This document shows, piece after piece, positions 49,284 through 54,760 of a stretch of 64,000 nucleotides of DNA (position 1 is the stretch's first letter; the number at the start of each line of letters is the position of its first letter). A program made the position numbers and the translations under genes. The notes below the pieces were generated by a model. The model was not told the origin of the DNA and did not search any database. It saw only the letters and a program-made list of their open reading frames with translations. The DNA is from Escherichia coli (GTDB lineage: Bacteria > Pseudomonadota > Gammaproteobacteria > Enterobacterales > Enterobacteriaceae). The DNA lies in assembly GCF_003790525.1 (NCBI RefSeq), contig NZ_CP033635.1; one strand, 5' to 3'.

Positions 49284-49572
49284 ATGCGTCTCCAGGAGTG
49301 GAATGCGGACAAAGTTATCATACCACTTTATGCATGCGTATGCCATTGTTAAAATATAAATCGAATGATTGAAATAATATTATTTATTGATGTTATGAAT
49401 ATTAATATATTCCTAAAATTGATTATGTTGAATTGTGAAAAAACATATTTTTCAGTAGGTTGTATTTTTTTGAGAATAAATAATTTTATCTAAAGATGCT
49501 TTTTTGTGTTGACTTGAAAAATAGTATGATTTCTAATGCGCCAACTTTTTATGAAATAATTTAACTGATTAA

Positions 49573-50289
49573 ATGGTGGCGAAAATTAATCGATTATTAC
49601 GGCTCGGGCCTGTCTTACTTCTGTGCACATCATTTTTCGCACAATCTAATATGACTGTATATCCTATGTCTGTATCTATAAACAGTCAGGGAGAAGGAAG
49701 TGTTCGTGTAATATCGAAAACGAATGAAGTCCAATATATAAAGGCAACCGTATTTCGTATCGATAATCCATCAACACCACAAGAAAAAGAAATCGAAGTA
49801 ACTTCAGGCGATGCAAACCAACTTGTGATAATGCCGCCCAAATTTGCTTTGCCTGGCGGTAGTAGCAAAACCGTGCGTTTTGTGGCAATGGAACCTGAGC
49901 AAAAAGAAAAAAACTATCGGGTTAAATTTGAAGCTGTACCCAGCATTGATGATGCAACAGATAATAAAAAAGATCTCTCCATGCAATTAACGGTTAACTT
50001 AATTTGGGGGATTGTTGTCAGCGTGCCACCTCAGCAGCCTGTGGCAAAGTTAGATATTAACGCCGATAAAAAGCTAATCAATAATGGCAATCAACGTCTG
50101 AAGATATTAACCATTGCCTATTGTAAAAATAGTGGTTCTGCGGAGTGCAGAACACAGACCGTAAATAAAAACATTTTCCCTGGTCAGGAAAGAGTTTTAG
50201 AAAGCATATCTGGCTACGATAAAATCGTTGTCAAATATAATAACTGGATCACCAAGGACAATGGCGAGTTTGAGCTGGCGGTCCATTAA
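49573..50289 (+). CDS. Periplasmic fimbrial chaperone of an alternate chaperone-usher (class 5, CS1/CFA-I-like) system (238 aa)
   Basis: First gene of a 4-gene operon; signal peptide MVAKINRLLRLGPVLLLCTSFFAQS; size and position match CooB/CfaA; absent from K-12 at this locus. Confidence 0.75.
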   Translation: MVAKINRLLRLGPVLLLCTSFFAQSNMTVYPMSVSINSQGEGSVRVISKTNEVQYIKATVFRIDNPSTPQEKEIEVTSGDANQLVIMPPKFALPGGSSKTVRFVAMEPEQKEKNYRVKFEAVPSIDDATDNKKDLSMQLTVNLIWGIVVSVPPQQPVAKLDINADKKLINNGNQRLKILTIAYCKNSGSAECRTQTVNKNIFPGQERVLESISGYDKIVVKYNNWITKDNGEFELAVH

Positions 50290-50318
50290 TTATCATTGTA
50301 ATAAACCAAGGAATAGTA

Positions 50319-50819
50319 ATGAAAAAGGTATTCGCAAAATCTCTTCTGGTAGCGGCAATGTTTTCCGTTGCAGGTTCTGCATTAGCAGTACAAAAAGATA
50401 TCACTGTTACTGCTAACGTTGATGCTGCTCTGGATATGACGCAGACCGATAATACTGCACTGCCGAAGGCAGTAGAAATGCAATATCTGCCAGGTCAGGG
50501 TCTGCAATCTTACCAGTTAATGACTAAAATCTGGTCAAATGACACGACCAAAGACGTGAAAATGCAGTTAGTTTCGCCTGCGCAACTGGTTCAGAGCCTG
50601 GACGCCAGCAAAATTGTTCCGCTGACCGTAACCTGGGGTGGTGAAGAGATTAAAGCTGATGCGGCAACCACTTTTACCGCAACGAAAATCTTTGCTTCCG
50701 ATGCGTTAACTAACGGTTCGCTGGCTAAACCACTGATGTTTTCCCAGGCTACCAAAGGTGTTCTGGAAACGGGTATCTACCGTGGCGTAGTTAGCATTTA
50801 TCTGTCCCAGGCTCTCTAA
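50319..50819 (+). CDS. Major fimbrial subunit (class 5 pilin, CooA/CfaB-like, 166 aa)
   Basis: Signal peptide MKKVFAKSLLVAAMFSVAGSALA; mature N-terminus VQKDITVTANVDAALDM resembles the N-terminal motif I recall for CfaB/CooA. Confidence 0.78.
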   Translation: MKKVFAKSLLVAAMFSVAGSALAVQKDITVTANVDAALDMTQTDNTALPKAVEMQYLPGQGLQSYQLMTKIWSNDTTKDVKMQLVSPAQLVQSLDASKIVPLTVTWGGEEIKADAATTFTATKIFASDALTNGSLAKPLMFSQATKGVLETGIYRGVVSIYLSQAL

Positions 50820-50891
50820 TCTGGATAACAGAATTAACATGCAATAAAGGGAGGCAAGTCCTCCCTTCTTTTAACTATTTTAGTATTTATT

Positions 50892-53594: not shown

Positions 53595-54685
53595 GAAATC
53601 GATTAATTGCCGTGATTTTATGTTTATTTGGCATGGTCGCGGGGGGGCACGCTACGCCAAATGTGACGGCTGAAATTACTTATGATTTGGCCGCTGGTAG
53701 GGCGGATTATTACTTCTGGAATAGGGAAGATCCCCCCGCAGTAAGCTACAACACGACATGGTCAAGTTATAAATGCGATTTTCCTGATGTGCAGCAGACC
53801 TGTACCGCATCAGGAAATTTATCAACAGTGAAAATATATTTGACAGAAAAACGCAGTGGAATGCGTTGGCCCGTCAAACTCAAAGGCTATGTTGATGCGG
53901 AGGTCTGGAACCCGGGTGGAGTCTGTAACGGATGGTCGACGCAAATCGCGTTAGCTAACGGTACGGGTTATCAATGTAAAAGTGCTTCAGACGGTTATAT
54001 ACAACATCTTGCGAGCGCAAAGCCGATGACGCTCTATCTTGAACAGTCCGAAATGAAAAATTTACCAATCGGTGGTGTTTGGGAAGGTTCGGTCAAATTG
54101 CAGTTTACTAATCCGTCTACGGATTATCGCGCCGATATTACGCTTAATGTCCTCGATCCCAACCATATCGACGTGTTCTTCCCGGAGTTCGCCCACGCTA
54201 CGCCACGCGTACAACTGGATTTGCATCCAACAGGCAGCGTTAACGGCAACAACTACGCGCAAGATCTGACTATGTTGGATATGTGCCTGTACGATGGCTT
54301 TAACGGTAACGGTCTTAGCTATGAAATTTTGCTAAAAGATGAGGGAAGAACGGCGGCAGGACGCAGTAATGGTGAGTTTTCGATTTATCGTCAGGGCGCG
54401 AGCTCAACGGATGAAGGGGAGCGTATTGATTACCGTGTCAAAATGTACGACCCGGAATCAGGTGGGCAAATCGATGTGCGCAACAATGAGAGCATGGTCT
54501 GGACCAACATCAACCTTAAACGTGTCCGCCCGGTGGTGCTTCCAGGCATTCGTTACGCTGTGATGTGTGTTCCCACACCGCTGACGCTGGTGGTCGACAA
54601 ATTTAACGTGACGGCAAAACAGGCGGGATATTATATGGGTAAATTGTCGGTCATCTTTACCCCGTCATTGCCGACAATCAATTGA
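53591..54685 (+). CDS. Fimbrial minor subunit / tip adhesin (CooD/CfaE-like, 364 aa)
   Basis: Signal peptide MRNRLIAVILCLFGMVAGGHA; 4-bp ATGA overlap with the usher stop; motifs LPIGGVWEG, DMCLYDGF and C-terminal YYMGKLSVIFTPS resemble CfaE as recalled. Confidence 0.75.
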   Translation: MRNRLIAVILCLFGMVAGGHATPNVTAEITYDLAAGRADYYFWNREDPPAVSYNTTWSSYKCDFPDVQQTCTASGNLSTVKIYLTEKRSGMRWPVKLKGYVDAEVWNPGGVCNGWSTQIALANGTGYQCKSASDGYIQHLASAKPMTLYLEQSEMKNLPIGGVWEGSVKLQFTNPSTDYRADITLNVLDPNHIDVFFPEFAHATPRVQLDLHPTGSVNGNNYAQDLTMLDMCLYDGFNGNGLSYEILLKDEGRTAAGRSNGEFSIYRQGASSTDEGERIDYRVKMYDPESGGQIDVRNNESMVWTNINLKRVRPVVLPGIRYAVMCVPTPLTLVVDKFNVTAKQAGYYMGKLSVIFTPSLPTIN

Positions 54686-54713
54686 CCTCGCAGACCAGAA
54701 AAAACTAAACAAC

Positions 54714-54737
54714 GAAGCCGCCTGAAGAGGCGGCTTC
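54714..54737. terminator. Hairpin between the convergent tip adhesin gene and exuT
   Basis: gaagccgcctgaagaggcggcttc perfect inverted repeat. Confidence 0.7.
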
Positions 54738-54760
54738 GTCATTACAACTTACGTTAATTC

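Follow-up and report, generated by a model that had tools for sequence, protein, structure and literature searches.

The operon most similar to the one considered here has been described in two strains of Escherichia coli. In SE11, it is the "CS1-like" operon (ECSE_3375-3378), which Oshima et al. (2008; PMC2608844) reported to be present in SE11, HS, E24377A, 536, and SMS-3-5 and missing from MG1655, Sakai, CFT073, and UTI89. In E. coli W, the genes were named eafABCD and placed "between exuT and exuR" by Archer et al. (2011; PMC3032704). Two later papers credit the name "CS1-like" to the E. coli fimbria catalogue of Wurpel et al. (2013); the string is absent from the main text of that catalogue, and the name presumably appears only in its figures. 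CS1-like usher and pilin transcripts were detected by RNA-seq in non-O157 STEC, where they were differentially expressed (PMC6033998), and a 2025 survey lists "variants" of an operon that is probably eaf. In the full-text literature outside subscription journals, mentions of Eaf come from comparative genomics, PCR surveys, and RNA-seq, and none demonstrates a pilus, describes an adhesion phenotype, or identifies a receptor.

We analyzed a stretch of E. coli DNA of 64,000 nucleotides (the window), in which four co-directional plus-strand open reading frames (ORFs) of 238, 166, 900, and 364 amino acids lie between exuR and exuT, at the positions given in a preliminary description. The insert that holds them is the already known Eaf operon and not a new discovery. 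It shares with the operon of SE11 and W the exuR-exuT locus, the four genes, the primer sites, and the RefSeq annotation, and it differs solely by allele, the window carrying a minor one. Published "CS1-like" primers match exactly at 52272-52290 (plus strand) and 53007-53026 (minus strand), inside eafC, and the predicted 755-bp amplicon has the published size, as expected of the Eaf/CS1-like operon. The view that the system had gone unrecognized, and that no such operon had been described on the chromosome at this position, is thus refuted by the 2008 and 2011 papers, by the published primers, and by the PGAP annotation, which names all four fimbrial genes correctly. As a discovery, Eaf has no weight, having been catalogued since 2008 to 2013 and being correct in RefSeq. 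The features of the locus are as follows.

49312 to 49329, no strand assigned: ExuR/UxuR-box-like palindrome AAGTTATCATACCACTTT, outside the insert, in that part of the exuR leader which empty sites also have (backbone)
49375 to 54721, no strand assigned: indel of 5,347 bp (44.7% GC), present here and missing from empty exuR-exuT sites
49375 to 49572, plus strand: putative upstream regulatory region, 19.7% GC, as read from the sequence, with a candidate sigma-70 promoter inside
49573 to 50289, plus strand: eafA, periplasmic chaperone of the CfaA/TcfA type, 238 aa, by Pfam, NCBIfam, and phmmer searches of the PDB
50319 to 50819, plus strand: eafB, CS1-type major pilin, 166 aa, Pfam Fimbrial_CS1 (1.4e-23)
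50847 to 50867, plus strand: stem-loop followed by a U-rich tract in the pilin-usher gap, a terminator-like site with a 7-bp stem in the minimum-free-energy fold
50910 to 53594, plus strand: eafC, alpha-clade outer-membrane usher, 894 aa, the frame being open back to 50892 (900 aa)
53591 to 54685, plus strand: eafD, two-domain CfaE/CblD-family tip adhesin and predicted assembly initiator, 364 aa, Pfam CblD (2.2e-97)
54708 to 54743, no strand assigned: GC-rich bidirectional terminator hairpin from a terminator scan, common to the convergent eafD and exuT

With their true starts, exuR spans 48507-49283 and exuT, which encodes the hexuronate transporter ExuT, spans 54761-56059; the product of the former reaches the NCBIfam equivalog level for ExuR (563.7 bits versus a cutoff of 396). 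Alignment to the empty sites of HS-02, BLR(DE3), and EDL933 places one edge of the insert between GATTGAAA and TAATATT and the other between AACAACG and AAGCCGCC. The extent first proposed, 49284-54760, does contain the insert, but the real bounds are slightly tighter (about 49375-54721), as the backbone includes 91 bp of the exuR leader along with the terminator hairpin of exuT. The hairpin, which folds at -24 kcal/mol (z = -5.2), is kept at empty sites and is therefore a backbone element. As described, the region is lower in GC than the flanking genes, yet the difference is graded along the operon: the 198 bp of noncoding DNA upstream is 19.7% GC, eafA is 39.6%, and eafB, eafC, and eafD are 46 to 48%, compared with 50.1% for the window and 51 to 54% for exuR and exuT. 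The 4-bp ATGA overlap of the third and fourth ORFs is present, and each of the four products has a putative N-terminal signal peptide, judged by eye from basic first residues, a hydrophobic stretch, and a cleavage motif resembling AxA. No RNA family was found in or adjoining the insert, and PADLOC returned no defense-system match.

Pfam, NCBIfam, and PDB searches, together with an AlphaFold model, bear out the assignment to an alternate chaperone-usher operon with the order chaperone, major pilin, usher, and tip adhesin. On the evidence of sequence and model, all four proteins belong to the alpha (alternate, class-5-like) chaperone-usher clade, in which this gene order is characteristic. Among named systems, the Salmonella Typhi Tcf operon (TcfABCD) is likewise a chromosomal four-gene alpha-clade operon, and EafA, EafC, and EafD have their top NCBIfam matches in it. 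However, Eaf falls far below the equivalog cutoffs for all four Tcf proteins (TcfA, 134 versus 500 bits; TcfB, 93.6 versus 384; TcfC, 541.8 versus 1428; TcfD, 103.1 versus 589), the TcfD match being limited to the C-terminal part (residues 144 to 355), and Eaf is not a Tcf operon by that standard. The top NCBIfam match of EafB is CblA of the Burkholderia cenocepacia cable pilus (CblBACD), and EafD falls in Pfam CblD. Eaf nonetheless lies outside that system as well, with EafB scoring 116.7 bits against the CblA cutoff of 225, and the cable pilus differs in belonging to another genus and in having cblS/T/R-type regulators, which are absent at Eaf. Unnamed alpha-fimbrial operons of the Klebsiella oxytoca group and Citrobacter freundii have the same four-gene order and the Fimbrial_CS1, TcfC, and CfaE_2nd domains, but they occupy another chromosomal site (lysR-ygeA) and are separated from the Escherichia operons by a clear gap in identity.

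EafA has matches to Pfam PapD_N (1.1e-07) and, under the equivalog cutoff, to NCBIfam TcfA (5.9e-39). In the PDB, phmmer aligns its residues 25 to 236 with 4ncd (7.7e-34) and CfaA (4y2o; 2.3e-31), whereas FimC reaches only 1e-3, which places the chaperone with the CfaA/CooB type of the alpha clade. EafB matches CblA and TcfB in NCBIfam, both under cutoff, and CfaB in the PDB (6nrv; 4.3e-22), along with CS17 (8ehs) and CooA (4hji). It is a CS1-type pilin with a predicted N-terminal donor strand, VQKDITVTANVDA, which aligns with VEKNITVTASVDP of CfaB. Pairing in the stem at 50847-50867 is preserved in the other allele via one-sided changes, and the stem-loop probably acts as a partial terminator, fixing the ratio of pilin to usher. 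For eafC, the second ATG, at 50910, is the favored start on the basis of PGAP and the signal-peptide pattern. The usher has Pfam matches to Usher_TcfC (2.5e-59), the TcfC E-set domain (2.5e-20), and CooC_C (2.4e-05) and an NCBIfam match to TcfC (2.8e-162, under cutoff), which assign it to the TcfC/CooC ushers and not to those of the FimD/PapC type. It is 27 to 30% identical to CfaC, CsuC, and CsdC, with tblastn covering 96% of its length, and none of the solved usher structures is related to it by sequence.

The tip protein matches CfaE (2hb0) by phmmer over residues 34 to 363 (1.6e-27), and a Foldseek search with its AlphaFold2 model (pLDDT 87.8, pTM 0.80) returned the same structure as the top PDB match over both predicted domains (TM 0.73 to 0.76), as befits a two-domain tip protein of the CfaE/CblD family. 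Sequence identity to CfaE is 24%. The N-terminal adhesin domain (residues ~22 to 190) is hypervariable and the C-terminal pilin domain is conserved, with mean pairwise identities of 0.62 and 0.91, respectively; EafD identity is 69 to 100% within the Escherichia set and 44 to 47% to the nearest relatives outside it, which belong to the operons of the Klebsiella oxytoca group and C. freundii. Adherence mediated by CfaE/CooD tip proteins requires a conserved arginine (Sakellaris et al. 1999, as cited in PMC3559732). The EafD position facing CfaE Arg67 varies among R, K, E, and N between alleles. We take the adherence arginine to be Arg181, and we take the CfaE sequence VKRR (chain residues 157 to 160) to include R181/R182 by a 22-residue offset; in the phmmer alignment, this sequence lies opposite a 4-residue gap in EafD. 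Among 17 Escherichia variants, the segment facing Arg181/182 contains no conserved arginine. Since the receptor-site residues of CfaE are not kept in EafD, the CFA/I mode of binding is not transferable to Eaf.

These observations bear on how far the label "CS1/CFA-I-like" in the preliminary description can be taken. Eaf resembles CFA/I and CS1 (CfaABCE and CooBACD) in gene order, in alternate chaperone-usher machinery, in a donor-strand CS1-type pilin, and in a CfaE-fold tip, and to that extent the label holds; the closeness that it implies was overstated, as shown by the low usher and tip identities and by the fact that no NCBIfam equivalog cutoff is reached. CFA/I and CS1 are plasmid-borne with Rns/CfaD, whereas Eaf is chromosomal, has no such activator nearby, lacks the Arg181/182 segment in its tip, with a variable Arg67 position, and is common in commensals. 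In both sequence and location, it falls outside strict ETEC class 5 (CFA/I, CS1, CS2, CS4, CS14, CS17, CS19, and PCFO71), and EafD appears from its alignment to lack the tip arginine, Arg181, of that class. It is therefore highly improbable that Eaf is a true orthologue of CFA/I or CS1 that recognizes the same receptors and acts as a diarrheal virulence factor. The shared gene order and folds would suit that explanation, as would a report (PMC13293299) of class-5-like operons of matching length (5,095 to 5,108 bp) in 58% of ETEC from Kenyan livestock, but usher and tip are too diverged, the arginine region is missing, and commensals such as SE11, HS, and W commonly carry the operon. Cross-reaction of anti-class-5 ETEC vaccine antigens with Eaf should not be assumed.

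Assembly of the Eaf pilus can be modeled by homology to CFA/I and CS1. All four proteins would be exported by Sec, and EafA would keep subunits in the periplasm through donor-strand complementation. The two-domain EafD would be the first to engage the EafC usher, initiating assembly, and EafB would then polymerize beneath it, each subunit filling the gap in the Ig fold of the one before it with its N-terminal strand VQKDITVTANVD. The outcome would be a pilus tipped by the EafD adhesin domain. The hairpin 3' of eafB probably holds the pilin above the levels of the usher and the adhesin.

Of 5,426 complete E. coli genomes, 1,904 (about a third) carry ≥80% of the insert, and 3,502 have a contiguous exuR-exuT junction. 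K-12-type strains are without the operon, as the preliminary description had it, and exuR and exuT are 129 bp apart in BLR(DE3) and EDL933. All 1,922 places in E. coli genomes are chromosomal and none is on a plasmid; one inspected plasmid record with a ~95% copy has the full chromosomal context and represents a chromosomal fragment. The exuR-exuT gap is also where the operon lies in E. coli W, in E. albertii, and in a cryptic Escherichia clade. In agreement with the preliminary description, no integrase or IS is annotated at the boundaries, and 40000-64000 contains no tRNA. No direct or inverted terminal repeats were found at the ends of the insert. The absence of mobility genes and repeats, the shared slot in other Escherichia, and the diverged flanks at the common empty site uphold the earlier reading that the indel is old and not a mobile island. 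A GC content under that of the flanks and a family best known from ETEC plasmids might instead suggest a recently gained mobile or pathogenicity island, for example, from an ETEC plasmid. That origin is already contradicted and can be given hardly any credence, given the lack of mobility features and true plasmid copies, an usher just 27 to 30% identical to those of ETEC, carriage by E. albertii and the cryptic clade, and alleles much older than the flanking genes.

The window allele is a minor one: its adhesin-domain DNA is matched at ≥99% in 83 of 1,911 carrier genomes, and its proteins differ from those of the common allele (76% identity for EafD and 84% for EafA). Within the insert, dS ranges from 0.4 to saturation (above 2), compared with 0.04 to 0.16 in the flanking genes, and dN/dS in the eaf genes is 0.03 to 0.21. 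The alleles are anciently divergent and under purifying selection. These low ratios despite such deep divergence, together with the number of carriers and with four ORFs that are intact in the window and in five further alleles examined, indicate that the eaf genes are under functional constraint. The low ratios and the intact ORFs also weigh against the operon being a cryptic, decaying remnant that is silent, heading for loss, and without present function, as do the conservation of the candidate promoter hexamers between alleles and the transcripts in STEC (PMC6033998). Decay would be in keeping with the 65% of complete genomes that are without the operon, with at least one recent precise loss of the insert, in HS-02, with copies that have IS2 or IS3 inserted in the usher or that encode, in Shigella, an EafD truncated to 210 aa, and with the lack of a cis regulator and the extreme upstream AT-richness typical of H-NS-silenced fimbrial operons; we consider it unlikely. 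The insert is very probably an Eaf/CS1-like pilus operon whose presence or absence at one fixed site is a long-standing polymorphism and whose many, anciently diverged alleles differ mainly in the receptor-binding domain.

What remains of value is an adhesin carried by many B1 commensals, STEC, and livestock ETEC, whose tip is unusually polymorphic and without the receptor-site arginines of CFA/I and which may contribute to host or niche tropism. More tentatively, Eaf may represent a balanced polymorphism of long standing across the genus, one in which presence/absence is combined with at least 17 to 20 adhesin-domain alleles recombined onto a conserved scaffold of pilin domain, usher, and pilin. 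The alleles would then have different, non-CFA/I receptor specificities, none being of the CFA/I type since the Arg181/182 site is missing. If this is so, Eaf would be a determinant of host and niche tropism in commensal and B1-type E. coli and not a cryptic relic.

Upstream of eafA, a -35 sequence TTGACT (49509-49514), a 17-nucleotide spacer, and a -10 sequence TCTAAT (49532-49537) form a putative sigma-70 promoter of the operon. Both hexamers and their spacing are unchanged in the common allele, in surroundings that are only ~81% identical. The region upstream of eafA contains no credible regulator ORF, only spurious ORFs of ≤42 aa in 20%-GC DNA, and no gene for an Rns/CfaD-type (AraC-family) activator adjoins or lies near the operon. 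Because the upstream region is so AT-rich, H-NS-type silencing with conditional expression is the most likely control of an operon that encodes no regulator of its own; a regulator might act in trans.

Two other forms of control were considered and rejected. For an invertible switch, the only repeats are short, AT-rich, and at chance level, such as a 20-nucleotide, 85% inverted pair (49369-49388 and 49475-49494); the candidate promoter lies outside this pair. Coupling of eaf to hexuronate sensing through ExuR was set aside since the sole box-like site is in the backbone, with none in the insert. This palindrome has 5 mismatches to what we take to be the 18-bp ExuR/UxuR consensus, a score equaled twice in the exuT-uxaC control region, and it is probably the operator of exuR itself.

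The operon between exuR and exuT is the known Eaf, or CS1-like, operon; this accessory locus is common and its annotation is correct. The SE11 genome paper of 2008 described a chromosomal "CS1-like" operon (ECSE_3375 to ECSE_3378), also found in E24377A, HS, ATCC 8739, 536, and SMS-3-5 with 71 to 100% amino acid identity and missing from MG1655, O157 Sakai, CFT073, and UTI89 (PMC2608844). "CS1-like" fimbriae were described as typical of phylogroup B1 by Wurpel et al. (2013), as cited in later work (PMC4552563). HUS-associated non-O157 STEC had elevated transcript levels for the CS1-like usher and the major subunit (log2FC, 2.98 and 1.94, respectively) (PMC6033998). 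Both CS1-like PCR primers from a UTI study with a 755-bp amplicon (PMC8249706) match the window exactly, at 52272-52290 (plus strand) and 53007-53026 (minus strand), and define 755 bp inside the usher gene. The RefSeq/PGAP names for all four genes are appropriate. Given this 2008 report, the exact primers, and the PGAP annotation, the preliminary description's proposal of a previously uncharacterised system is not supported, and the presence of the operon would not surprise a specialist. No pilus, receptor, or phenotype was reported for Eaf in the literature searched.

Four co-directional ORFs lie on the plus strand, just where they had been described:

48507-49283, minus strand, exuR (NCBIfam ExuR equivalog, 563.7 bits versus a cutoff of 396)
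49573-50289, plus strand, eafA, chaperone, 238 aa
50319-50819, plus strand, eafB, major pilin, 166 aa
50892-53594, plus strand, eafC, usher, open frame of 900 aa
53591-54685, plus strand, eafD, tip protein, 364 aa
54761-56059, minus strand, exuT, flanking gene

PGAP and the signal-peptide pattern favor an eafC start at 50910 (894 aa), and eafC and eafD overlap at ATGA. The mechanically called ORFs for exuR (48507-49346), exuT (54761-56179), and uxaC (56479-57954) begin 21, 40, and 21 codons 5' of the PGAP starts; the boundary at 49284 used earlier was already based on the true exuR start. From eafA to eafD the operon measures 5,113 bp in the window, against 5,107 bp for the common allele; on the strength of these lengths the class-5-like operon of a 2025 survey (PMC13293299) is very probably the Eaf operon. 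Archer et al., who introduced the name eafABCD, stated that the cluster of E. coli W is without a tip-adhesin gene (PMC3032704). This statement looks wrong, because E. coli W (NC_017635.1) has an intact gene for a 362-aa CfaE/CblD-family protein in the fourth position (locus 5929-7017) and the window homologue has a CfaE fold.

When the occupied site is aligned with three empty sites, the insert falls at 49375-54721 (5,347 bp). The first 91 bp past exuR, containing its leader and promoter, are backbone outside the insert, as is the GC-rich exuT terminator hairpin at 54708-54743 (-24 kcal/mol, z = -5.2). The exuR-exuT distance is 129 bp in BLR(DE3) and EDL933, so that the earlier statement that these genes are adjacent in K-12-like strains was correct. 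Of 5,426 complete E. coli genomes, the exuR-exuT junction is contiguous in 3,502, and 80% or more of the insert is present in 1,904, in every case on the chromosome; the two sets add up to 5,406 genomes. The common empty site shares only ~81% identity with the occupied-type flanks but has the same breakpoint, between TGAAA and AAGCCGCC. One genome in the survey, E. coli HS-02, combines an empty site with flanks of the occupied type; its exuR-exuT spacer of 140 bp differs from the 129-bp K-12/EDL933-type empty site, and there is no junction repeat. This combination points to a recent loss of the 5.3-kb operon in HS-02 that was precise to the base.

The GC content drops from 51 to 55% in the flanks to 31 to 41% at the 5' end of the region and is 45 to 50% deeper in. 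It is 44.7% for the insert, 19.7% for the 198-bp upstream noncoding stretch, and 50.1% for the whole window, which bears out the AT-richness noted before. The reported lack of mobility genes and tRNAs at the boundaries likewise held, with no IS or integrase annotated and no tRNA in 40000-64000. A search for terminal repeats flanking the insert found none. An AT-rich 20-nt inverted repeat (49369-49388 and 49475-49494; 85% complementary, arms 86 nt apart) begins exactly at the left junction. It is poorly kept in the common allele, does not enclose the candidate promoter, and probably reflects chance in DNA of 20% GC.

Domain and structure-database matches assign all four Eaf proteins to the alpha (alternate) chaperone-usher clade. 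EafA has a Pfam PapD_N domain and a TcfA-like NCBIfam match, and among solved structures it matches CfaA (4y2o) at 2.3e-31 and FimC at ~1e-3. EafB matches Pfam Fimbrial_CS1 (1.4e-23) and the CfaB, CS17, and CooA structures (4e-22 to 2e-10), and its N terminus, VQKDITVTANVDA, aligns with the CfaB donor strand, VEKNITVTASVDP. EafC contains Usher_TcfC, TcfC E-set, and CooC_C domains; the structure-database sequence search found no solved relative. EafD matches Pfam CblD (2.2e-97) and CfaE (2hb0) at 1.6e-27 over residues 34 to 363, i.e., both domains. Structure prediction, suggested earlier as a check on this 364-aa protein, gave an all-beta AlphaFold2 model (75 aligned homologues; pLDDT, 87.8; pTM, 0.80) with CfaE as the best PDB match (E = 7e-24; TM, 0.73 to 0.76; 24% identity), followed by CfaB and then, at far lower TM, FimH and PapG.

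The preliminary description was right about the clade, but its "CS1/CFA-I-like" label overstates the kinship with CS1 and CFA/I, from which Eaf is distant by sequence comparison. EafC is 28 to 30% identical to the ETEC ushers CfaC, CsuC, and CsdC in alignments covering 96% of its length, EafD is ~24% identical to the CFA/I tip protein CfaE, and no Eaf protein reaches an NCBIfam equivalog cutoff for Tcf or Cbl. The CfaE segment VKRR, which by a 22-residue offset would include Arg181/Arg182 of the receptor site, lies opposite a 4-residue gap in EafD, and where CfaE has Arg67, the Escherichia EafD alleles have R, K, E, or N. With such low identity and absent or variable receptor-site positions, homology can carry over a predicted assembly mechanism from CFA/I and CS1, but receptor specificity cannot be transferred.

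The most interesting part is the allelic structure, although variants of the operon are probably already listed in the 2025 survey. Strain MSB1_9D served as the reference for the common allele.

Protein identity, window versus common allele (MSB1_9D)
ExuR, 98.8%
EafA, 83.6%
EafB, 96.4%
EafC, 94.4%
EafD, 76.5%
ExuT, 99.5%

Nucleotide identity is 97 to 99% in the flanks (98% in exuT), 74 to 78% across the promoter and eafA, 84 to 95% in eafB and eafC, and, in eafD, 55 to 62% in the adhesin domain and ~79% in the pilin domain. Values of dS are 0.36 to 0.67 for eafB, 0.11 to 0.75 for eafC, and 0.8 to 1.4 for eafA, and those for eafD run from 0.9 to saturation; between the same two strains, the flanking genes give 0.04 to 0.16. 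The dN/dS of the eaf genes is 0.03 to 0.21. Across 17 full-length Escherichia EafD clusters (69 to 100% identical to the window protein), the adhesin domain has a mean pairwise identity of 0.62 (0.48 at residues 41 to 60 and 0.28 to 0.30 at residues 101 to 140) and the pilin domain one of 0.91. Some variants join a different adhesin domain to the pilin-domain haplotype of the window, which indicates recombination. The adhesin-domain allele of the window is rare (at least 99% match in 83 of 1,911 carrier genomes). These patterns fit old allelic lineages that purifying selection has kept functional and that homologous recombination has swapped by way of the conserved flanks. For the receptor-binding domain of EafD, diversifying or balancing selection is plausible, although pairwise dN/dS never exceeded 0.21. 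The promoter region and eafA (49375-50289) are far more diverged between alleles than eafB and eafC (50319-53594). The chaperone is as diverged as the adhesin, which could reflect either a mosaic produced by recombination or its co-adaptation with EafD. This deep, adhesin-focused diversity is a reasonable subject for follow-up.

The operon contains no regulator gene, and there is no credible small ORF 5' of eafA. A candidate sigma-70 promoter (-35 TTGACT, 49509-49514; 17-nt spacer; -10 TCTAAT, 49532-49537) keeps its hexamers and spacing between alleles within surroundings that are ~81% identical. From its composition, we infer that the 19.7%-GC upstream region may be the kind of DNA silenced by H-NS; Wurpel et al. 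remark in general terms that H-NS represses cryptic fimbriae of E. coli. A stem-loop and U-tract 3' of eafB (50847-50867), in which changes between alleles are one-sided and keep the pairing, probably attenuates read-through into eafC. Control by ExuR is not supported, as the sole ExuR-box-like site belongs to exuR itself and lies in the backbone. An Rfam ES036 (CssrF) sRNA match (44825-44865, minus strand; 38.4 bits versus a gathering threshold of 37.6) lies ~4.5 kb from the operon.

The operon occupies the same slot in E. albertii, Escherichia sp. MOD1-EC7003, and divergent E. coli. The nearest EafD relatives outside Escherichia (44 to 47% identity) are in the Klebsiella oxytoca group, Citrobacter, Enterobacter, and Kluyvera; Klebsiella and Citrobacter freundii carry an equivalent four-gene operon elsewhere, between lysR and ygeA. 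The Klebsiella operon adjoins a pectate lyase gene and an ABC transporter of the oligogalacturonide type, and that of C. freundii is near kduI and kduD. Both sites, lysR-ygeA and the Escherichia exuR-exuT, border hexuronate or pectin catabolism genes, probably by coincidence. No true plasmid copy was found, one plasmid record having been inspected: NZ_MG591698.1 (E. coli PN43, "354-kb plasmid," 353,691 bp), filed in PLSDB/RefSeq as an unnamed, non-mobilizable plasmid, holds the full chromosomal neighborhood yqjF-exuR-eaf-exuT-uxaCA-ygjV and is probably a mislabelled chromosomal fragment. SFGN01000125.1 (5,741 bp, "MAG: Lachnospiraceae bacterium") consists of exuR-eafABCD-exuT with an usher 98% identical to that of E. 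coli and is almost certainly E. coli sequence that was wrongly binned into a Firmicutes MAG.

Elsewhere in the window, the aga/rsmI region was read from the annotation of E. coli SC516 (chicken liver, China), which matches as the reverse complement with 4 mismatches in 64,000 bases. Here agaI is directly followed by rsmI (yraL; 5906-6819), with no yraHIJK fimbrial operon between them. In K-12, yraHIJK presumably occupies this position, which would give the window a second presence/absence polymorphism of fimbrial genes. The aga/gam cluster for N-acetylgalactosamine and galactosamine (6819-17247; kbaZ, agaVWEF, nagA/agaA, agaS, kbaY, agaBCD, and agaI) appears complete, while K-12 presumably has a deletion hitting agaW, agaE, agaF, and agaA.
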